From a virus: 64,000 nt of DNA. The notes beneath the pieces were generated by a model. The model saw nothing but the letters and a program-made list of their open reading frames with translations, searched no databases and was not told the origin of the DNA. The position numbers were made by a program, and so were the translations under genes. The stretch lies in IMG/VR virus record IMGVR_UViG_3300027973_000032, positions 32,001-96,000 of that record. One strand, given 5' to 3'. Positions 22,433 to 31,385 of this stretch are shown in pieces (within the stretch, counting starts at the first letter, position 1; each line of letters opens with the position of its first letter).

Positions 22433-22481
22433 GTAGTGAAAAAACAACAGCATTGACGTAGCCCCCAACTGACACTATAAT
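22433..22481 (+). promoter_or_regulatory. Box promoter 1
   Basis: GTAG-N8-CAAC, 4 bp, TTGACG-17-TATAAT. Confidence 0.8.
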
Positions 22482-22487
22482 AACAAC

Positions 22488-22844
22488 ATGGCGACACAGA
22501 CACAGGAGCACAAGATGCAAGTCACAGCAAAGATTCTTCTCTTAGACCCAGAGTACATGGGCCAGTTCTACTTCAAACCTAACCCACGTGAGACTGCACG
22601 AGAGCTGTTGGCCAAGGACCTTTACACTGAGCAAGGCCAGTTCACGCTGAACGTCACTGACAGTGAAGACGCGGCGGAGTTCTTGTTCGATCTTACCAAC
22701 AATCCCAGCAAGGATGACTTGCGGGCTGTACTGTACGGACGTGGTCGTTCGCTCAGTGTGGGCGACATTGTTGACGTAGACGGTGAGCTTTTGCTCTGTG
22801 CTAACACGGGATGGCAGCGTGTTGCATACGCACAACAGGCTTGA
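22488..22844 (+). CDS. YodL-like domain protein
   Basis: GRSLSVGDIV motif; second in-frame ATG at 22515 with GGAGC SD. Confidence 0.6.
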   Translation: MATQTQEHKMQVTAKILLLDPEYMGQFYFKPNPRETARELLAKDLYTEQGQFTLNVTDSEDAAEFLFDLTNNPSKDDLRAVLYGRGRSLSVGDIVDVDGELLLCANTGWQRVAYAQQA

Positions 22845-22869
22845 CGTAGGGCCGCAAAGGCCTTATACT
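22821..22869 (+). promoter_or_regulatory. Box promoter 2
   Basis: GTTG-CATACGCA-CAAC, 4 bp, TTGACG-17-TATACT. Confidence 0.8.
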
Positions 22870-22898
22870 AAGAACATGGACACAAAGGAGCGAACGAT

Positions 22899-23102
22899 AT
22901 GATGGCAGGATTTAGTACTATGGCCAGTTTGGCGGCCAGTCGTGTGCGGCTATTAATGCAACAGACGGACATGGAACGTCCAGCTGATTTGATTGCAGAT
23001 ATTATGCACTACTGTAAGGCAGAGGGCATTGAGTTTGATGCTGAAGTCAATGTGGCCGAATTGTACGTGTCAGAAGAAGAAGGATATGATGATGCAAATT
23101 GA
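22899..23102 (+). CDS. Hypothetical protein
   Basis: GGAGC SD; DLIADIMHYC motif. Confidence 0.7.
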   Translation: MMAGFSTMASLAASRVRLLMQQTDMERPADLIADIMHYCKAEGIEFDAEVNVAELYVSEEEGYDDAN

Positions 23103-23307
23103 TGGCCTAACAGATGAGCAATACGAGATTGCCGAAACTCTTTGGAACTGTGAAACAGAAGACGAAGTTAGGGAAGTCATTGACCAAATTGGCAGTGAAG
23201 CATATAGTGTATACCAATTGATGGTGGCCGCACACTTTGATGAGAATTGTACTGATGTCAGTGAAGCGGCGGAGTATTTAAATTCAATTAGGGGATGTTA
23301 TGAGTAA
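23089..23307 (+). CDS. Hypothetical acidic protein
   Basis: AAGGA SD; overlaps neighbours; start approximate. Confidence 0.6.
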   Translation: MMQIDGLTDEQYEIAETLWNCETEDEVREVIDQIGSEAYSVYQLMVAAHFDENCTDVSEAAEYLNSIRGCYE

Positions 23308-23560
23308 GCTTGCATTCATTGGTAGGCCTTGGGTTGCATTTGATGCAGCCAATGCTAATCATCGTCAACAGTTTGCACAATTCCAACGTTTGGGTACTTG
23401 GGGTAAGTGTCCAGTTCGTTTTATTATTTCAGATGATCACGGCGACTTAATCACTATGATACAGCGACGACTTATTGAGTATTACATCAATCAGGAGTTT
23501 GGTCGCAGTGAGTTCCTCCGTCGTACAAATACAACGGCTGTTGACACAAAGACAGCCTGA
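23300..23560 (+). CDS. Hypothetical protein
   Basis: RPWVAFDA..HR..WGKCPVRF. Confidence 0.65.
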   Translation: MSKLAFIGRPWVAFDAANANHRQQFAQFQRLGTWGKCPVRFIISDDHGDLITMIQRRLIEYYINQEFGRSEFLRRTNTTAVDTKTA

Positions 23561-23569
23561 CGTTATACT
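23520..23569 (+). promoter_or_regulatory. Box promoter 3
   Basis: GTCG-N8-CAAC, 5 bp, TTGACA-17-TATACT. Confidence 0.75.
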
Positions 23570-23599
23570 ATTGAAACAGTAACGCAACGGAGCAAAGAT

Positions 23600-23884
23600 A
23601 TGTGGACCACAGACAATCAACGTGAACTGAGTGCGGCACTTGACCTCATGTATGAGGACCAAGGAGCCCAATTCACTTCAGGCTATGCTAACAGCTTGGC
23701 AGTAGAGATGTTGAACTCCTTGCCCAAACGCCGGCAAAAAGAATTCATCAAACAGGTACAGACCTTCAATGGTCGTCAGCTGGTCAAAGTAAAGCATCTG
23801 TTGACTGGTGCTGAGGTAGAGATCCGTAGGAGTGAGCGTGGTACCTGTGTTGACCCCAGCACGGAACGGTATCACACTATGTGA
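23600..23884 (+). CDS. Hypothetical protein
   Basis: GGAGC SD; ends CVDPSTERYHTM. Confidence 0.7.
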   Translation: MWTTDNQRELSAALDLMYEDQGAQFTSGYANSLAVEMLNSLPKRRQKEFIKQVQTFNGRQLVKVKHLLTGAEVEIRRSERGTCVDPSTERYHTM

Positions 23885-23885
23885 T

Positions 23886-23934
23886 GTTGTATGCATACAA
23901 CGGCCTAGACAAACTGGGCCGTTGAAGTTATACT
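23886..23934 (+). promoter_or_regulatory. Box promoter 4
   Basis: Perfect palindrome GTTGTATGCATACAAC, 4 bp, TAGACA-17-TATACT. Confidence 0.8.
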
Positions 23935-23965
23935 AATGAAACAGTAACGCAACGGAGCAACAAAG

Positions 23966-24199
23966 ATGGCAAATTCCAGATTCCCAAACATGAGCTATTG
24001 TATGTGTGAGAATACAGTAGCGGCCCTAGTCCAGATTATTGAGCACATGGACGAGGATCCTGAGAACTTCCTGCAAGACTTGAGCATGACGGAATTGAAT
24101 TCGTTCAATCGTTTATACGAGCTCTGCAAAGAGTTTCGTAGGACTGCGGACTTTGTTGCTGAAATTGCCGATGAACTTGCATTATCAACTGAGGAGTAA
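23966..24199 (+). CDS. Hypothetical protein
   Basis: GGAGC SD; NMSYCMCENT motif. Confidence 0.7.
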   Translation: MANSRFPNMSYCMCENTVAALVQIIEHMDEDPENFLQDLSMTELNSFNRLYELCKEFRRTADFVAEIADELALSTEE

Positions 24200-24204
24200 T
24201 TAGC

Positions 24205-24399
24205 ATGAACTTGACATATAAAGATCTCAAAGACTTTTTAGAAACTCTTACTGCCGAGCAATTGGCCTGTAATGTGTCTGTATATACTGGAGACACTGAC
24301 GAAGCCTATCCTGTATTTGCCGCTGGGTTTAATACTAAAGAGGAAATGGGCGAAGAGTTAGATACATTAGATCCTGGCCATCCTATTCTATTGTTTTAA
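24205..24399 (+). CDS. Hypothetical protein
   Basis: GAGGAG SD. Confidence 0.65.
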   Translation: MNLTYKDLKDFLETLTAEQLACNVSVYTGDTDEAYPVFAAGFNTKEEMGEELDTLDPGHPILLF

Positions 24400-24411
24400 G
24401 GAGTAATTAGC

Positions 24412-24705
24412 ATGAACGCAGATCAAATTGCCAAATCCATTCGTTTCACGCCCTGGACCAATGACGACCTTACCAAATTCGTTGATGCTGTCAAGTATGC
24501 GCGAGCCCAATTGGTTCGTAATAACATTAGGGAATTCGTTGAAGGCGATGCTGTTCGTTTTAACAGTCGTAAACACGGCCTTATTGGTGGCATTGTAGAG
24601 CATGTGGCAATTAAGTATGTCACAGTCCGTAGTCCAGTAGGCTTATTCCGTGTGCCAGCTAACATGCTGACACGGCGTGAACAACCAATGGTTGCCTTTG
24701 CCTAA
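24412..24705 (+). CDS. SH3-like hypothetical protein
   Basis: GDAVRF..G.VE.VAIKYVTV..FRVPANML; AAGGAG SD. Confidence 0.65.
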   Translation: MNADQIAKSIRFTPWTNDDLTKFVDAVKYARAQLVRNNIREFVEGDAVRFNSRKHGLIGGIVEHVAIKYVTVRSPVGLFRVPANMLTRREQPMVAFA

Positions 24706-24707
24706 TT

Positions 24708-24756
24708 GTTGTAAGAACGCAACGGGCTAGACACACTGGCCCAACGATAGTATACT
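24708..24756 (+). promoter_or_regulatory. Box promoter 5
   Basis: GTTG-TAAGAACG-CAAC, 4 bp, TAGACA-17-TATACT. Confidence 0.8.
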
Positions 24757-24785
24757 AGTGAAACAGTAACGCAACGGAGCACGTG

Positions 24786-24950
24786 ATGAAGAAAGGCATT
24801 TACCTTACAGTAGAGCAGACAGTAGAGATTCTCAGTAACACAGATTCGTTTGTGTTGGAAGAGATCTTAGAGCGATTGGTTGAGAGTGATCCAGGCACTG
24901 CCTACGTGATTCAAACCATTCTCAATAACTTGGAAAAGGAAATGGCATGA
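24786..24950 (+). CDS. Hypothetical protein (54 aa)
   Basis: Hand translation MKKGIYLTVEQ..; GGAGC SD. Confidence 0.6.
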   Translation: MKKGIYLTVEQTVEILSNTDSFVLEEILERLVESDPGTAYVIQTILNNLEKEMA

Positions 24951-25038
24951 GCGGTGACAAAGGTGATCGCATGGTAGCCATTGCAATGGCTGCATGTTTT
25001 GCTGTTCTTACTTGTTTGACTATTAAAGGATATCTATA

Positions 25039-25515
25039 ATGGGTACTCGTAGCCGCATTGGTGTTAAGGTCAATGGTGTATACCTCAGCGTATATTGTCA
25101 TTGGGATGGTTATGCAGAACATAACGGTGCAATCCTTATGGCTCACTACAATGATCAGGCCCGGGTTGAAGAGCTTGTATGCATGGGCGATATGAGCACG
25201 CTAGGCAAAGACATTGGTGAGAAGCATGGCTTTAGCAGCCGTGACATGGATATCCCATACGAGAAGTTTGAAGAACTCTATGGCGATATGTGTACCTTTT
25301 ACGGACGTGATCGAGACGAAACTGATGTAGGCTTTAAGACTGCTGCCACTGTTAAAGACTTCCTTGACCAATGTGAAAGCTGTGGTGCTGAATACTACTA
25401 CATCTTCAACAATGGTGAATGGCTATATGGTAGCCTACATGAACGTGACGACGAGTACTATACGTTCGTTTCGTTGCGTACGGTATTTGCCAAGAAAGAA
25501 AGGGAAGCAGCATGA
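25039..25515 (+). CDS. Phage hypothetical protein, MGTRS../YCHWDGY family
   Basis: MGTRSRIG..SVYCHWDGY..FYGRDR..EYYYIF. Confidence 0.75.
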   Translation: MGTRSRIGVKVNGVYLSVYCHWDGYAEHNGAILMAHYNDQARVEELVCMGDMSTLGKDIGEKHGFSSRDMDIPYEKFEELYGDMCTFYGRDRDETDVGFKTAATVKDFLDQCESCGAEYYYIFNNGEWLYGSLHERDDEYYTFVSLRTVFAKKEREAA

Positions 25516-25663
25516 ACTCAGCACAAACAGTAGAAGTCATTGTGCGTCTGTATATTGAAAAGGATGCAGACGTCAATGAAGTATTGCAAGAGATGGATTA
25601 CAGTTTCAAGTATCCAGGCATTCTAGCCACAGAGATTGTGGATGTGAACACAGAGATTTGACT

Positions 25664-25712
25664 GTTGTACTCTTACAACAGAGTTGACAGGGCGTGGGGT
25701 AGGCTATATAAT
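25664..25712 (+). promoter_or_regulatory. Box promoter 6
   Basis: GTTG-TACTCTTA-CAAC, 4 bp, TTGACA-17-TATAAT. Confidence 0.85.
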
Positions 25713-25745
25713 ATTGAAACTGTAACAAAGAGTTGGAGCAAATAG

Positions 25746-26621
25746 ATGCCTAAGATGATCACTATGGAGACCATGCAGTTAAAAAAAGCACCCGTTCGCA
25801 CAGAGAGCCTTGCACAAGAACCAAGTAAGAAGGTTCTCAAAGAGACTGATGACCAAATCAAAAGTCGTCTACGTGAACGTTTCCAAGTACTTGAAGACAT
25901 GACTCGTGCCGTAAAGAAAGGCCAAGTACGAGCAATGATTGTAAGTGGTCCACCTGGAGTGGGCAAGAGCTTTGGTGTTGAAGCTGTATTAAGTAAACAC
26001 GACACAATGGCCAATATCGCTGGCAATGAAAAGCTCAAAAAGTATGAAGTAGTCAAAGGTGCAATGAGTGCATTGGGTCTCTACAAGAAGCTGTTTGAGT
26101 TTAGTGGCACAAAGAATATCCTTGTGTTCGATGACTGTGATAGTGTATTGTTAGATGACTTGTCGCTGAACATTCTCAAAGCAGCATTGGACAGTGGCAA
26201 GAAGCGTATGATTCACTGGAATACGGAGAGTCATGCATTGAATAGAGATGGCATTCCAGACAGCTTTGAGTTTAAAGGTGGTGCAATCTTTATCACCAAT
26301 ATCAAGTTTGACAATGTAAAGAGTCGCAAACTGCGTGACCATTTAGAAGCATTGGAGAGCCGTTGCCATTATTTGGACCTGACCATTGACACTGATCGTG
26401 AGAAGATCTTACGTATTAGACAGATCATTGAAGATGGCATGTTAGATGAGTATGAGTTTGGTGATGATGGACGTGAAGCCGTTATTCACTTCATTGACAC
26501 TCACAAGACTGAATTGCGTGAGTTGTCATTGCGTATGGTATTAAAGATTGCAGATCTCAAAGCATCGTTCCCAGACCGTTGGGAGAATGTTGCAAAGATG
26601 ACTTGTATGCGTCGTAATTAA
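25746..26621 (+). CDS. AAA+/P-loop ATPase
   Basis: Walker A GPPGVGKS, Walker B LVFDDCD, FITN, ALESRC. Confidence 0.85.
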   Translation: MPKMITMETMQLKKAPVRTESLAQEPSKKVLKETDDQIKSRLRERFQVLEDMTRAVKKGQVRAMIVSGPPGVGKSFGVEAVLSKHDTMANIAGNEKLKKYEVVKGAMSALGLYKKLFEFSGTKNILVFDDCDSVLLDDLSLNILKAALDSGKKRMIHWNTESHALNRDGIPDSFEFKGGAIFITNIKFDNVKSRKLRDHLEALESRCHYLDLTIDTDREKILRIRQIIEDGMLDEYEFGDDGREAVIHFIDTHKTELRELSLRMVLKIADLKASFPDRWENVAKMTCMRRN

Positions 26622-26627
26622 TTCCCG

Positions 26628-26686
26628 TCAAAAACTCGTCGCTCCCGAGTTTTTGAATCCCCCGTCGCTCCCGGGGGATTTTTTTT
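26628..26686 (+). ncRNA. Twin-hairpin RNA with identical UCGCUCC loops; second hairpin doubles as terminator
   Basis: TCAAAAACTCG-TCGCTCC-CGAGTTTTTGA then ATCCCCCG-TCGCTCC-CGGGGGAT plus T tract. Confidence 0.65.
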
Positions 26687-26687
26687 G

Positions 26688-26736
26688 GTTGCATAGAAAC
26701 AACACCATTGACTGAACTACTCAAAGGCACTATACT
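26688..26736 (+). promoter_or_regulatory. Box promoter 7
   Basis: GTTG-CATAGAAA-CAAC, 4 bp, TTGACT-17-TATACT. Confidence 0.8.
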
Positions 26737-26742
26737 AAGAAC

Positions 26743-27012
26743 ATGGACAAAACGAAACTGGAGTACAAGATGGCACGTAAGCAAACCAACTACCTTTTGG
26801 AACTCATCGACAGCGGCATGCTCAGTGCTGATGACGTCGTTACTATGGCACTCAAGTACATGAGTGAAGACGAAGTCGCTGACATGATGCGGGTTAACGA
26901 CATCCTTGTTGAAGACGATGAAGAGTTTGGGGACGACGATGATCAGGCAGAAGAATGGCACGACAGCGTCAGCGAGTCACAAGAATGGCACGACTACGAC
27001 GAAGATTGTTGA
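26743..27012 (+). CDS. Hypothetical protein with acidic tail
   Basis: In-frame ATGs at 26743 and 26770; LKYMSEDEVADM motif. Confidence 0.7.
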   Translation: MDKTKLEYKMARKQTNYLLELIDSGMLSADDVVTMALKYMSEDEVADMMRVNDILVEDDEEFGDDDDQAEEWHDSVSESQEWHDYDEDC

Positions 27013-27013
27013 T

Positions 27014-27062
27014 GTTGTAAGCATACAACGGGCTTGCTCAAAAGGCCCGTTGGAGTTATACT
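27014..27062 (+). promoter_or_regulatory. Box promoter 8
   Basis: GTTG-TAAGCATA-CAAC, 4 bp, TTGCTC-17-TATACT. Confidence 0.8.
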
Positions 27063-27068
27063 AAGAGC

Positions 27069-27245
27069 ATGGACACACAGGAGCACAAGATGAAGACAGA
27101 CAAAGCACAACAGGCCGTAATCCAACTGCTTAAGAGCAAGTTGGCTCGGGAAGACGAAGCAACGGTAAAGGCTGCTTTCTTTAACGTGTTCAAAGACATT
27201 GATCAGAAGTTGGCTCGTGTACTGTGGCTGGAGGCAAAGGTATGA
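27069..27245 (+). CDS. Hypothetical protein
   Basis: Hand translation; in-frame ATGs at 27069 and 27090 (GGAGC SD). Confidence 0.6.
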   Translation: MDTQEHKMKTDKAQQAVIQLLKSKLAREDEATVKAAFFNVFKDIDQKLARVLWLEAKV

Positions 27246-27382
27246 CCGCACAAGAATTGATTGACTTGTTGACGAAGTTAGATCCCAATAAAGAGATACT
27301 GATCTATGATGGATCGTGGGATCAAAACAAGTCAATCAGCGAAGTAGAAGTTAACGAAGACGGCGACGTCGTTATTTGGTAA
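27242..27382 (+). CDS. Hypothetical protein (46 aa)
   Basis: MTAQELIDLLTKLDPNKEI..; ATGA-coupled. Confidence 0.55.
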   Translation: MTAQELIDLLTKLDPNKEILIYDGSWDQNKSISEVEVNEDGDVVIW

Positions 27383-27392
27383 GGAGAACATA

Positions 27393-27596
27393 ATGGCACG
27401 AATGAAAGAACTTTACGAAGATGTTAGGGAAATGTTCGAACAGGGCCTTAGCGATGCAGCCATTGCCTATGCCACTGGTCAACCCATTGAATTGATACAA
27501 GACTGCACGGCGCAGTTCATTGACGAAGATGAAGAAGGCTTTGACTTCGACCAAGTGGCTGCGGATGACTTTTCCTTCGACGAAATAGAGTATTAA
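27393..27596 (+). CDS. Acidic hypothetical protein, possible HTH
   Basis: AAGGAG SD; GLSDAAIAYATGQPIELI. Confidence 0.65.
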   Translation: MARMKELYEDVREMFEQGLSDAAIAYATGQPIELIQDCTAQFIDEDEEGFDFDQVAADDFSFDEIEY

Positions 27597-27638
27597 AAAA
27601 ACAACAGGCTTGCTCAAACTGCCTGTTGATAGTATACT
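27590..27638 (+). promoter_or_regulatory. Box promoter 9 (degenerate left half)
   Basis: GTAT-N8-CAAC, 4 bp, TTGCTC-17-TATACT. Confidence 0.7.
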
Positions 27639-27644
27639 AAGAAC

Positions 27645-27881
27645 ATGGCAACACAGGAGCACAAGATGGGGTACAAGGTGGTAGCAGACAAGTACCAAAT
27701 GGACATGATGCGTGAGAAATACGGCCCACGCAAAGGTCTGGAAGGTCCCTTCAACTTCAGTGGCCGTGTTCTTTACTACGATGTCCGAGAAGGCTCCTAC
27801 TACGACCCACGTACAGACTTCTACGTGGCTCAGGACGAAATGACGTCAATCCACAACCAACTACTGGACAAGATGCGATGA
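27645..27881 (+). CDS. Hypothetical protein
   Basis: GLEGPF..GRVLYYD..EGSYYDP.TDFY; in-frame ATGs at 27645 and 27666. Confidence 0.7.
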   Translation: MATQEHKMGYKVVADKYQMDMMREKYGPRKGLEGPFNFSGRVLYYDVREGSYYDPRTDFYVAQDEMTSIHNQLLDKMR

Positions 27882-28117
27882 ACTGGAACAAAGAAGGCCA
27901 ACAGGTTGCTGGAGTGTACTTGGGTGCCTACACCGTCACTGGTGTGGTTCAAAGCAGCCGTGTCAAATACGGCGGCAAGGTCCAACACCGCGTCCTGCTA
28001 GACAAGCCCGTTATGGTGTTTGGCCGTGAGGCAGAGGAACTCCTGTTGGACGACGAAGAACTGTTCACCAAACCCCGTAAGGGCATGATGGATGTTGTAT
28101 TTGAACAACAGGCTTGA
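27878..28117 (+). CDS. Hypothetical protein
   Basis: G.V.SSRVKYGG.VQH motif; ATGA-coupled. Confidence 0.7.
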   Translation: MNWNKEGQQVAGVYLGAYTVTGVVQSSRVKYGGKVQHRVLLDKPVMVFGREAEELLLDDEELFTKPRKGMMDVVFEQQA

Positions 28118-28142
28118 CGATTTGAGCAGCCGACGTTATACT
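28094..28142 (+). promoter_or_regulatory. Box promoter 10
   Basis: GTTG-TATTTGAA-CAAC, 4 bp, TTGACG-17-TATACT. Confidence 0.8.
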
Positions 28143-28171
28143 ATTGAAACAGTACAGCAAAGGAGCAACTA

Positions 28172-28396
28172 ATGTTCGCAGTAGTAGATACCAAAACAGA
28201 AGAACCCATTAAGACTTATAAGACATTTAAAGGCGCTGCCATTGCCATGCGAGCAATGAACAAGAAGGCAGGCTTTCCAATACGAATGACTCGTTGCTGG
28301 ACACGCGGACTGAGCTTGGAATGGTGCCGCACAATGAACGATGAATACGAATACGGTCCCTACGCTGTGGGCGGCCAAATCCATTACGTAGGTTAA
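28172..28396 (+). CDS. Hypothetical protein
   Basis: GGAGC SD. Confidence 0.65.
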   Translation: MFAVVDTKTEEPIKTYKTFKGAAIAMRAMNKKAGFPIRMTRCWTRGLSLEWCRTMNDEYEYGPYAVGGQIHYVG

Positions 28397-28406
28397 GGAG
28401 AATACA

Positions 28407-28895
28407 ATGCCTAATTGGTGTAATAATACTGTCACTATCAAACATAGTGACCCAAAGATGATTGCTCGTGTACGCGATGCCTTTGAACAAGAACGGCTGT
28501 GCAATGAGTTCCTTCCCAATCCCAATGGTGAATGGTCGTGGGAACACTCGGTGAACACTTGGGGAACCAAATGGGAAATTGCCGGAGAGATTGACAGCAT
28601 TGAAGACGGAGTAGTCCTCACCTTTGATAGTGCATGGGCTCCCCCAATTGGCCTATACGAAAAGCTCTACTCACTGGGCTATGAAGTCACTGCTCGTTAC
28701 TATGAACCAGGTATGGCCTTTGCCGGCACATACGAAGATGGTAGCGATGACTGCTACGACTACAGTGGCATGAATGCTGATGAGATTGAAAAGTACCTCC
28801 CAGAAGAACTGGACCAGTACTTTGGCATCAGCGAGACTGTGAGTCAGTGGGAAGAAGAAAACAACGAAGAAACGGTTGACAGCAACGACGATTGA
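28407..28895 (+). CDS. DUF1281/YubB ferredoxin-like domain protein
   Basis: MPNWCNN, NTWGTKWE, FDSAWAPP, YYEPGMAFAG. Confidence 0.75.
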   Translation: MPNWCNNTVTIKHSDPKMIARVRDAFEQERLCNEFLPNPNGEWSWEHSVNTWGTKWEIAGEIDSIEDGVVLTFDSAWAPPIGLYEKLYSLGYEVTARYYEPGMAFAGTYEDGSDDCYDYSGMNADEIEKYLPEELDQYFGISETVSQWEEENNEETVDSNDD

Positions 28896-28949
28896 TGTTA
28901 CTATATTGATACTGCGAAAGCACGTACACACACTAAAAGGAAATTGAAA

Positions 28950-29345
28950 ATGGCTACTGATAAGACTTTTACCGTTGCAGGTGTATCCAAACACAAAGGC
29001 GAATACAAGGTTCGCTTTGCCAATGATGTTATGCGAGTTAAGGTACTGACTAAAGGCGGACACGAAGATATTCGTCTTGTTGAACTAGACGAACCCCTCT
29101 CCAAGCTTGATGCAGTTCTGGCAATTAAGAACATGACTGAGTTCGCAGACGTCAATGCACAGAATGCATTTTTGGAATACGTTGAACGTAATGTGCCAGC
29201 TGCCAAACCAGAAAGCACACCCTCTGCTACCAAAACCAAAGCAGTCGTTGCTAAGGCAAAGGTAAGTACAGTGACCCCACAAGTGCCTGCACTGAAAGGC
29301 ATGACCCCGTTGGGTTTTAAAGATGTAGAGGACGCACCGTTTTAA
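28950..29345 (+). CDS. Hypothetical protein with Ala/Lys-rich tail
   Basis: FTVAGVS..YKVRFAND..RVK.L.K.GH; upstream TTGACA-17-TACTAT at 28876-28904. Confidence 0.7.
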   Translation: MATDKTFTVAGVSKHKGEYKVRFANDVMRVKVLTKGGHEDIRLVELDEPLSKLDAVLAIKNMTEFADVNAQNAFLEYVERNVPAAKPESTPSATKTKAVVAKAKVSTVTPQVPALKGMTPLGFKDVEDAPF

Positions 29346-29346
29346 T

Positions 29347-29535
29347 ATGAGCTGGGAAATGTACGAAGTCTGGGCCGTTGACCTCAACGGTCACGAGACA
29401 CTGATCGACACTACTAAAGACATCAAACGAGCAAGGCTACTGGCCAGAGAGTCGTTGGATGAAATCAATATAGAATGTATCATCTATAAAGAGACTGAGG
29501 ATGGTGAATTAGCATTGGTGGAAAGACTTCAGTGA
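29347..29535 (+). CDS. Hypothetical protein
   Basis: Adjacent in-line ORF. Confidence 0.6.
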   Translation: MSWEMYEVWAVDLNGHETLIDTTKDIKRARLLARESLDEINIECIIYKETEDGELALVERLQ

Positions 29536-29541
29536 TGTACG

Positions 29542-29619
29542 GGGCCTCTAGCTCATGTTGGTTAGAGCAGTGGACTCATAATCCATTGGTGCCGAGTTCG
29601 ACTCTCGGGGGGCCCACCA
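29542..29619 (+). tRNA. tRNA with CAT anticodon, probably Ile2 (lysidine, reads AUA); Met not excluded
   Basis: Acceptor GGGCCTC/GGGGCCC, anticodon arm GTGGA-CTCATAA-TCCAT, TTCGA loop, encoded CCA; C4:G69 and C5:G68 pairs. Confidence 0.9.
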
Positions 29620-29623
29620 ATTA

Positions 29624-29708
29624 GCCCGGATGGTGAAATAGGTAGACACAAGAGACTTAAAATCTCTCGCCGAAAGGTGTGCCGGTTCGAGTCCGGCTCC
29701 GGGCACCA
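29624..29708 (+). tRNA. tRNA-Leu(TAA)
   Basis: GCCCGGA/TCCGGGC stem, AGAGA-CTTAAAA-TCTCT arm, long variable arm, CCA. Confidence 0.93.
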
Positions 29709-29711
29709 TAT

Positions 29712-29787
<76 letters not shown>

Positions 29788-29806
29788 TTGATATAACCAT
29801 GGGGGT

Positions 29807-29855
29807 GTTGTAAAAATACAACACTCTTGCTTTTTTTTACGAGCTGTGCTATAAT
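29807..29855 (+). promoter_or_regulatory. Box promoter 11
   Basis: GTTG-TAAAAATA-CAAC, 4 bp, TTGCTT-17-TATAAT. Confidence 0.8.
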
Positions 29856-29892
29856 TTACACATACTAAATTAACACACAGAGAGTTCTAAAA

Positions 29893-30183
29893 ATGCAAAA
29901 GCTTACAGCTACACACATTACTAAAATTAATACCATTATGCTTGATACTATTAGCACGTACATTAAACAGTACAACATTGCTAATACTTACGATCCGCTC
30001 TTAATTACGGATACTTTGCATAACACTTATGCATTGCATAAGTTTAATAATACAAAAAACATACAAGAGTTGCATAACGCAATTATTGCACAAGACACCT
30101 TAGTACGCGAGTACTTTGTTAATGTACTTCGTTATATTGAAAATAACAATTTAATCCCTGCTAGCAAATTTTGCTGTAGTTAA
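29893..30183 (+). CDS. Hypothetical protein (AT-rich)
   Basis: ORF after box promoter 11. Confidence 0.6.
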   Translation: MQKLTATHITKINTIMLDTISTYIKQYNIANTYDPLLITDTLHNTYALHKFNNTKNIQELHNAIIAQDTLVREYFVNVLRYIENNNLIPASKFCCS

Positions 30184-30199
30184 AAACGATATAACAAGT

Positions 30200-30268
30200 G
30201 TTGCATAAAAACAACACTTGTTGTAATAAAACAACAGCATTGACAAAAACAGATCCAGACACTATAAT
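30200..30268 (+). promoter_or_regulatory. Box promoter 12 with tandem double box
   Basis: Boxes at 30200-30215 and 30220-30235, 4 bp, TTGACA-17-TATAAT. Confidence 0.85.
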
Positions 30269-30304
30269 ATACACATACTTAGTTAACACAGAGAGAGAAA
30301 GAAA

Positions 30305-30553
30305 ATGGCTACAATGGCAAACGTATACAAACGTATTATTATTAACTGCTACGGCAAAATTTATGCACGAGGCGATGCAGGCTTAGACTACATGGATAGG
30401 CATGAGGCAATGCTTGCAGACGATTTAGATGTGCTAATGCAACATGTATATAACGATGAGTTAGATACTGTTAGCACAGATAAATTACGTGCGCTTGCAG
30501 ATGCATTGCAAGTCGTTGTCTACGACGCTGAGTTTGACTTAGAGTCTTTTTAA
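30305..30553 (+). CDS. Hypothetical protein
   Basis: ORF after box promoter 12. Confidence 0.6.
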   Translation: MATMANVYKRIIINCYGKIYARGDAGLDYMDRHEAMLADDLDVLMQHVYNDELDTVSTDKLRALADALQVVVYDAEFDLESF

Positions 30554-30625
30554 TACAGGTACTATAATGCAAGGCCAATGGATTTGCGTCAATGGCAAAT
30601 GGATCTTTATTAGAGACAACGAACA

Positions 30626-30937
30626 ATGAATAAAGTTATTAGAGATGGATTTGTTGCAGTACTATACAGCCCAGGCTACGGCGCAGGTTGGTATACTTGG
30701 CATAACATTCCAGAACTCATATACGATCCAACTATAGTTGAAATGATTGAACAGGGTCGTCTCAACGACGTCGAAGCTTATTGCGAACTCACATACCCCT
30801 CCTTTACCAAATGCTATATGGGCGCATCTGATCTCGAGATCAGCTGGATTAAAGAAGGTCGCGTATTCCTTATAGAAGAATACGACGGCAACGAAAGCAT
30901 CCGCTTCAGAGAAGACATCCACTGGCTTGTTGCTTAA
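30626..30937 (+). CDS. Phage hypothetical protein
   Basis: VAVLYSPGYGAGWYTW..IEEYDGNE. Confidence 0.75.
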   Translation: MNKVIRDGFVAVLYSPGYGAGWYTWHNIPELIYDPTIVEMIEQGRLNDVEAYCELTYPSFTKCYMGASDLEISWIKEGRVFLIEEYDGNESIRFREDIHWLVA

Positions 30938-30977
30938 CTACAACAGGGTAGACATAGGGCCCAACTGGCCGTATAAT
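30929..30977 (+). promoter_or_regulatory. Box promoter 13
   Basis: GTTG-CTTAACTA-CAAC, 4 bp, TAGACA-17-TATAAT. Confidence 0.8.
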
Positions 30978-30983
30978 TACTAC

Positions 30984-31385
30984 ATGGACAAAGCAAACAA
31001 GGAGCAGGCAATGAGCGAATACACTTACAAGAGCTGGGACGAGTACACTCCATTGGAGCAGGCTGCCATGACCTGGTGGGATATGTACAAGGACGCCTAC
31101 GGCGTTCGCCCACGTGGCACAGACACCAGCTCCTGGACACTGGAGAAGTTTGAGAGTGAATTCAAGTACCTCCAGGACGTGATCCACTGCAACGAACGCC
31201 AACGTGAACTGGACGAGGCCTTCAACATCAAACGGTTTGAAGAGCGCGTGGCCAAAGTCATTGAACTGGGTGCCAAAGACCGCGCAATGGCCCTGCGTTG
31301 GATCCACGAGGCTGAAGGCAGCAACGGCGACGACGAATACCTTTGCTTCTGCGTTGGCGTTCCATACGGCTATATTAAATCTTAA
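30984..31385 (+). CDS. Phage hypothetical protein
   Basis: DMYKDAYGVRPRG..GAKDRAMALRW; in-frame ATGs at 30984 and 31011. Confidence 0.75.
   Translation: MDKANKEQAMSEYTYKSWDEYTPLEQAAMTWWDMYKDAYGVRPRGTDTSSWTLEKFESEFKYLQDVIHCNERQRELDEAFNIKRFEERVAKVIELGAKDRAMALRWIHEAEGSNGDDEYLCFCVGVPYGYIKS

Follow-up and report, generated by a model that had tools for sequence, protein, structure and literature searches.

Several described systems come close to the phage RNA element analysed here. In Alphaproteobacteria, the cuckoo/CcsR1-4 small RNAs (sRNAs) consist of two hairpins with the same anti-Shine-Dalgarno (anti-SD) loop, and in R. sphaeroides they are produced by RNase E from the 3′ UTR of an upstream mRNA (PMC8034643, PMC4615179). 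OppZ and CarZ of Vibrio cholerae likewise derive from mRNA 3′ ends, with involvement of RNase E and Hfq, and inhibit translation of their own transcripts (PMC7398697). Among phages, the c4 antisense RNA of P1/P7 uses its loops to pair with short sites around the ribosome-binding site (RBS) of a phage mRNA and thereby blocks translation, the loop/target pairs differing between relatives (PMC12197685). Phage T4 shuts off early genes post-transcriptionally through the RegB endoribonuclease and RegA, which read the SD (GGAG plus its 3′ context), including that of the regulator's own mRNA (PMC3014915). The PeSL terminator-promoter cassettes of T4-like phages, in turn, place a stem-loop just 5′ of a sigma70-like early promoter, have a conserved SD at their 3′ end and are repeated through the plastic early region (PMC4122927, PMC2839356). 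The phage regulatory RNAs that have been reviewed are mostly prophage-derived (PMC12197685). Regulatory RNAs of virulent phages are almost unknown.

Twin hairpins behind an early AAA+ gene

We analysed a 64,000-nt stretch of DNA (hereafter the window) from an uncultured freshwater phage, whose 110-kb record (38% G+C) is a fragment, ~31% complete, of a larger phage genome; contigs related to this record reach 300–400 kb. Within the window, an AAA+ ATPase gene encoding a 291-aa, T4-type NrdC.10-like relative (25746..26621, + strand) lies behind an early promoter that matches the sigma70 consensus perfectly (TTGACA-17 nt-TATAAT, 12/12 matches; 25684..25712, + strand), and its 3′ UTR constitutes the element. 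Seven bases on from the AAA+ stop codon (26619–26621) begins hairpin 1 (26628..26656, + strand) with a perfect 11-bp stem, directly followed by hairpin 2 (26657..26679, + strand) with a perfect, G+C-rich 8-bp stem. The stems are different and the 7-nt loops identical, both reading UCGCUCC (26639–26645 and 26665–26671), and a U-tract (T8; 26679..26686, + strand) comes after the second hairpin. This arrangement had been described in the first-pass annotation, and both the sequence and the predicted fold bear it out: RNA folding returned exactly the two hairpins, with a free energy of −30.2 kcal/mol (z = −3.7 as compared to dinucleotide shuffles).

Hairpin 2 (8–10 bp, six G-C pairs) and the T8 on the transcribed strand together form an intrinsic terminator. 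The next early promoter (26708..26736, + strand) bounds the element on the right; its −35 box begins at 26708, 22 nt past the end of the U-tract at 26686, as in the PeSL-type layout. No internal promoter was seen in 26500–26630. With a promoter of its own before the AAA+ gene, a terminator behind it and another promoter 22 nt on, the element is placed at the 3′ end of a predicted early transcript that contains no other gene. The 11-mer common to both hairpins, CGTCGCTCCCG, occurs twice in the window (0.09 expected), and the two hairpin loops are the sole occurrences of TCGCTCC in the 110-kb record. An Rfam search of the window and five relatives at E ≤ 1 returned only tRNAs and noise. The early region of the window also contains three tRNA genes in a row (29542–29785), followed by a terminator-like hairpin at 29800–29829.

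Conservation and covariation in related phages

Our sample of relatives comprised 80 loci encoding AAA+ proteins of 66–78% amino-acid identity. In ~75 of these 80, TCGCTCC occurs twice directly after the AAA+ stop codon, within an invariant loop, (A)UUCGCUCC, and the element as such is present in >150 contigs of uncultured freshwater large phages. In the relatives, each unit has a 9-nt loop (AUUCGCUCC) on top of a short apical stem, below which come an internal loop and an outer stem that is long and variable; a T-run follows at the end of the second unit. All distinct copies—57 of hairpin A and 59 of hairpin B—fold as hairpins with the motif unpaired. The window agrees with the relatives in the twin arrangement, the position after the early AAA+ gene, the loop core UCGCUCC and the T-run, and its 7-nt loops have lost AU relative to theirs, with CGCUCC kept. 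Intermediate forms with simple stems occur at two loci (L040 and L077).

Covariation was measured by motif-anchored sub-alignments and explicit pair counts; RNAalifold on MAFFT alignments missed the variable outer stems. The outer stem of hairpin A showed double-sided changes at 7/7 pairs, 94.7% of its alignment cells were paired as compared to 24–37% in slid-partner controls, and its covariation score was reached by none of 500 shuffles. In hairpin B, an extra pair alternates between G-C (18) and A-U (14), and the closing pairs of the apical stems covary as well (CCG/CGG, CUG/CAG, GUG/CAC, UUG/CAA and CGG/CCG). An invariant loop on covarying stems across the AAA+ 3′ UTRs of related phages is what the first-pass annotation had predicted, and the alignments agree with it on both counts. 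The element is not a chance terminator. Its polarity is that of the + strand: a T-run lies 3′ of hairpin B in 52 of 59 distinct relatives, as compared to an A-run 5′ of hairpin A in 2 of 57. A comparison of the strands by G.U versus A.C and by folding energy did not tell them apart, the minus-strand folds being about equally stable.

Besides the loop, the relatives keep certain unpaired parts (alignments A3/A4): hairpin A has an internal loop, CCAA/G(C/U)AA, that is symmetric (4x4), and hairpin B has UAA(A/G)(U/C) as a 5′ bulge. These could be a site for a protein or an RNase. The window hairpins have neither the 4x4 internal loop nor the 5′ bulge. In a subset of relatives (L008, L011–L021, L054, L064 and L080), the UGA stop codon of the AAA+ gene falls inside the apical stem and loop of hairpin A (..cUGAUUCGCUCC..), the coding sequence running through the 5′ arm of the outer stem. 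Translation termination at these loci therefore requires the ribosome to melt hairpin A, which could couple the display of the loop to AAA+ translation.

Early ribosome-binding sites and the loop

In the early regions of the relatives, the SD carries a characteristic extension. We counted 482 distinct SD contexts of the GGAG type; the next letter is C in 386 of them, and CGAA follows in 175 (0.4% expected). The sequence GGAGCGAA occurs 204 times in 433 kb, and its reversed control once; of the 395 GGAGC+ATG contexts, 229 read GGAGCGA. These tags lie 4–7 nt 5′ of the ATG, including at internal genes that lack a promoter. Complete relatives contain GGAGCGAA 8–14 times per genome, clustered around the element, so the tag marks a subset of genes and not the whole genome. 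The extended SD, GGAGCGAA(C), is the exact complement of the loop, (A)UUCGCUCC; loop–tag complementarity in the relatives spans 8–9 letters and at some sites is extended to GGAGCGAAUC(G). An exact 14-mer scan of viral contigs further revealed SDs extended to GGAGCGAAUCG and the second clade described below, along with many other matches that were chance or unrelated. In most relatives the AAA+ gene is itself tagged, its SD reading GGAGCGA at −10 (2989–2991 of the loci) with a full loop match. The canonical 16S rRNA tail pairs with only the GGAG of the tag, and the loop:tag duplex of the relatives reaches −13.9 kcal/mol versus −8.5 kcal/mol for that tail.

Several matches to these motifs were set aside. 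Extra exact copies of GATTCGCTCCC in G001–G003, considered as further hairpins, proved to be reverse complements of an SD plus ATG on the other strand. Twin-motif matches in bacterial genomes (72) were all unrelated coding or REP-like repeats and gave no clue to the host. In L305, L317, L292 and other bacterial genomes, the 11-mer GATTCGCTCCC recurs at 50–90-nt periods within unrelated REP-like palindromes or coding repeats, a trap for pattern searches. Finally, GGAGCGAAC resembles the 5′ strand of 16S rRNA helix 24 in many bacteria; as an explanation of loop and tag, this helix fails to account for the GGAGCCAAC of a sister lineage (see below).

Within the window, all ten GGAGC sites reported by the first-pass annotation are present, on the + strand, each 6–8 nt 5′ of an ATG and behind a promoter-like box. 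GGAGCGA is present at just one of them, at 22887, where the sole full tag of the window, GGAGCGAA (22887..22894), precedes a 67-aa ORF starting at 22899 and pairs with all seven loop bases at about −13 to −15 kcal/mol. The remaining nine read GGAGCA(A/C/G): GGAGC lies within GGAGCAC at 22505..22509 (start 22515), 24776..24780 (start 24786), 27080..27084 (start 27090) and 27656..27660 (start 27666), within GGAGCAA at 23589..23593 (start 23600), 23954..23958 (start 23966) and 28162..28166 (start 28172), and within GGAGCAG at 31001..31005 (start 31011), and the AAA+ gene (start 25746) has GGAGCAA at 25735..25741. Owing to the A at tag position 6, these nine sites, the AAA+ gene's own included, form five contiguous pairs with the loop (GGAGC:GCUCC), followed by an A.C mismatch against the loop C. 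The remaining genes of the record mostly use AGGA, GGAGA, GGAGT or GAGG. The complementarity of loop and early SD on which the annotation builds covers all 7 nt at start 22899 and holds for the dominant early SD of the relatives, but extends over only 5 nt at nine of the ten window tags.

The loop:tag duplexes of the window amount to −9.4 to −10.1 kcal/mol (−14.8 kcal/mol for the tag at 22887), versus −6.0 to −6.6 kcal/mol for the canonical 16S tail. When the loop was ranked by duplex against all 121 candidate start regions of the record, start 22899 came second and the other tagged genes fell within the top 20, but tagged and untagged sites were only modestly, and not cleanly, separated. No UUGCUCC hairpin that would match the GGAGCA tags was found in the 110-kb record, in which all TTGCTCC matches are coding or the tags themselves. 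The window's nearest relatives (L002, L003 and L007; 74–77% identity) use GGAGCGA. At L261, as in the window, the tags are unmatched by the loop, and L248 has GGAGCAA tags with no hairpin in the 7.8 kb available; a GGAGC tag can thus occur without a perfect loop partner. In the phage under study, the loop–tag link looks weakened, with one gene (start 22899) keeping the full match.

Three further features of these early regions deserve mention. Just 5′ of the AAA+ promoter of L248 (3115–3175) lie two GCUCC motifs (..GUUGCUCCAGGAGC.. and ..CCCGCUCCUAU..), which may be a relocated or decayed anti-tag element. The gene just downstream of the window's element (start 26770; 26759–26772) is promoter-proximal and has GGAGUAC, not GGAGC, as its SD; its equivalent in L002 does carry GGAGCGA, so the GGAGU at start 26770 does not reflect a general avoidance of the tag. 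The early leaders of the window (22476–31013) form two nearly identical classes (..TATACTAAGAACATGGACACA..GGAGCAC.. and ..TATACTATTGAAACAGTAACGCAACGGAGCAA..), which points to concerted evolution of promoter-leader cassettes, as for the PeSLs of T4-like phages.

Loop and tag vary together in a sister lineage, which has one hairpin after the AAA+ gene, with the loop ..GUUGGCUCC, and early genes tagged GGAGCCAAC. Loci with a CGCUCC loop contain 300 GGAGCG and 13 GGAGCC tags, loci with a GGCUCC loop 3 and 30, respectively, and loci with neither loop 14 and 10, of 197; Fisher p-values for these counts, as for those of the 49 loci below, are inflated by relatedness. Relative to the main lineage, tag position 6 changed from G to C and the pairing loop base from C to G. 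This joint change is what RNA–RNA pairing predicts. Judged from the sequences, it is a compensatory switch, and it counts as one evolutionary event. A second clade, with AAA+ proteins 58–67% identical, has one copy of the apical unit, CCG-AUUCGCUCC-CGG, ~800 nt downstream of the AAA+ gene and directly behind an early gene for an unrelated 89-aa product, which has a strong promoter of its own and a leader hairpin (L092:1603–1990; also L103, L117, L119, L153 and L155). For this 89-aa gene, a weak winged-helix match was the only one obtained. A separate terminator hairpin, which doubles as an operator palindrome, follows the anti-tag hairpin of this clade, and the clade still uses GGAGCGAA tags.

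Across 49 representative loci, the hairpin coincides with at least two GGAGCGA tags in 29, and 15 have neither; four have the hairpin without at least two such tags, and one has at least two tags without the hairpin. The two features are distributed by clade. Only three changes of hairpin state occur on the AAA+ tree, which leaves 2–3 independent contrasts (sign test, p ~0.5) and thus deprives the phylogenetically corrected association of statistical power. Moreover, since promoter-leader cassettes are homogenised within a genome, many tags can change in concert with no need for selection on each. The nearest AAA+ homologues in cultured phages are those of PA5oct (47%) and RcRudolph (37%), in both of which hairpin and tag are absent, and a DNA search of cultured phages gave no match.

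Proposed function, alternatives and described systems

The observed structure, conservation, strand polarity and complementarity of the element, and the fact that loop and tag changed jointly from one lineage to another, incline us to a reading in which the early AAA+ mRNA has an anti-SD RNA as its 3′ end, whose pairing with the tagged RBSs of early genes probably represses these; we regard this as rather more probable than its negation. The twin hairpins would be the structured 3′ end of a strongly promoted, monocistronic mRNA and, being nuclease-resistant, would persist with their U-tail as a stable 3′ UTR-derived sRNA, accumulating while early mRNAs turn over. Each loop would show the anti-tag (U)UCGCUCC and base-pair with the SD extension GGAGCGAA of early genes, in the relatives including the AAA+ gene's own tag. 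As this pairing is predicted to be stronger than that of the 16S rRNA tail, the RBS would be masked, and most likely early translation would be repressed with a delay and in a dose-dependent manner while the RNA builds up. That the RNA accumulates, pairs in the cell and acts as a repressor, we infer from sequence. Given the 8–9-letter match between loop and site in the relatives and their joint change, the RNA probably controls early protein synthesis.

More tentatively, and with not quite even confidence, we suggest that loop and tag may form a private, RNA-read address system. The tag would not be needed by host ribosomes, the loop RNA would switch a whole gene set at once, and tag and reader would change in a compensatory manner, as with GGAGCGAAC and UUCGCUCC versus GGAGCCAAC and UUGGCUCC. 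Graded tag variants, such as the GGAGCA of the window, might then set different sensitivities. If true, a single small RNA would control the phage's own early regulon via a private RBS tag, and the address system would parallel, in nature, the orthogonal RBS/anti-RBS riboregulators of synthetic design. The >150 contigs represent a ready stock of natural compensatory variants for tests and offer compact orthogonal RBS/anti-RBS pairs to synthetic biology. For annotation, the element shows that a conserved 'terminator' in the early region of a phage need not be just a terminator.

Hairpin 2 with its T8 is a canonical intrinsic terminator, and both hairpins might simply end and stabilise the AAA+ mRNA, with the invariant and internal loops docking a phage or host RNA-binding protein and the SD complementarity being incidental. 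That the relatives keep the closing G-C pair, the 4x4 internal loop and the hairpin B bulge, none of which an antisense seed alone needs, would suit such a role, as would the short SD match in the window. Still, we consider it unlikely: even granting CUCC/GGAG in both, the best-conserved loop and the commonest extended SD would agree over 8 nt by chance with a probability of ~0.8%, loop and tag changed complementarily in the sister lineage, and the hairpin-less lineages are without the tag. The same joint change is predicted if GGAGCGAA/TTCGCTCC is instead an asymmetric operator of a DNA-binding protein, facing one way just past early promoters and the opposite way, in two copies, after the AAA+ gene, all sites shifting when the specificity changes; the region is rich in operator-like palindromes beside promoters. 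However, the distance of the tag is fixed to the ATG (4–7 nt) and not to the −10 box (~18–22 nt), promoterless internal genes carry it too, and it contains GGAG and is strand-specific (204 vs 1). In addition, the reverse copies always sit in the unpaired loop of covarying stems, which a duplex DNA site would not need. A double-stranded DNA site therefore appears improbable to us.

Other alternatives accept an RNA and differ in its reach, its sign or its strand. Acting in cis only, the loops would bind the AAA+ SD on their own mRNA and so form a 5′–3′ closed loop, which would autoregulate AAA+ synthesis or shield the mRNA ends and leave other genes unaffected. Autoregulatory 3′ UTR-derived sRNAs do exist (OppZ, CarZ; PMC7398697), the AAA+ gene is tagged at −10 in most relatives, and the position of its stop inside hairpin A in some of them could couple folding to translation. 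That each RNA has two loops and each genome dozens of tagged genes argues otherwise, as does the second-clade hairpin, which follows a gene whose own SD is AAAGGAAA and not the tag, and we give a purely cis-acting role little credence. The same pairing might also work in the opposite direction, by guarding tagged leaders from a nuclease or by stabilising or activating early mRNAs, the direction of the effect lying beyond sequence analysis. T4 RegB cleaves within the GGAG of the SD and thereby inactivates early mRNAs (PMC3014915), so masking of the SD could be protective. A covered SD normally blocks 30S binding, though, and a positive effect has in our estimate only a slim chance; RegB family matches were absent from four related records, but the control genomes gave none either, which makes this search uninformative. 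The annotation had, lastly, raised a minus-strand RNA whose loops display GGAGCGA and act as a sponge for CsrA/RsmA or another GGA-binding factor. The hairpin does fold on either strand, with about the same stability on the minus strand. Yet the U-tract follows the element only on the + strand (52/59 vs 2/57), all neighbouring genes are on the + strand, and we found neither a good minus-strand promoter to the right nor a minus-strand terminator. Four related phage records contain no CsrA gene, in a search that did match in control genomes. We therefore drop the sponge proposal as scarcely credible.

Read as an anti-SD RNA, the element shares with the cuckoo/CcsR sRNAs two hairpins with the same anti-SD loop and an origin in a 3′ UTR, although processing from the 3′ UTR is here a prediction. 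The annotation's parallel to these sRNAs and to the AbcR type holds for the design, but the element is not a member of the family: the cuckoo/CcsR (alpha-r14) models of Rfam gave no match at E ≤ 1 to the window or to any of five relatives. Whereas the cuckoo/CcsR loop mimics the 16S tail with CCUCCUCCC, the phage loop reads (A)UUCGCUCC, UCGCUCC or AUUCGCUCC, and the cuckoo/CcsR sRNAs are bacterial, stress-induced, linked to DUF1127 genes and target no private SD extension. With OppZ and CarZ, the element would have in common the 3′-end origin and the feedback topology, the AAA+ gene itself having a tag that matches the loop fully in most relatives and over 5 nt in the window. These two sRNAs use a single-stranded seed on one operon target, unlike the phage element with its two loops and many tagged genes; no Hfq gene was found in the phage records.

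The c4 RNA resembles the element as a phage-encoded case of loop-to-RBS pairing with loop/target pairs that differ between related phages. It belongs to temperate phages and acts on one target (icd/ant) in immunity, whereas a whole early regulon is proposed here, and the Rfam C4 covariance model had no match in the window or five relatives. As to T4, the element would be an RNA counterpart of its protein-based early shut-off: RegB and RegA are proteins, the proposed reader is an RNA, and, if the proposal is true, RNA replaces the protein-based mechanism. RegB/RegA family matches were not found in the phage records, in searches run without a positive control. The PeSLs agree in layout with the element, which lies 22 nt 5′ of the next early promoter, but this agreement leaves the invariant loop unexplained; PeSL stem-loops are described by their stems (e.g., A3-4G3-loop-C3T3-4), and an invariant SD-complementary loop has not been reported for them. 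Our literature search found no published description of the motif or the tag, and no Rfam model matches. Anti-SD hairpin sRNAs that originate in 3′ UTRs are a known kind of regulator; what would be new is such an RNA in a lytic phage, matched to an SD tag private to the early genes of that phage and accompanied by natural compensatory variants.
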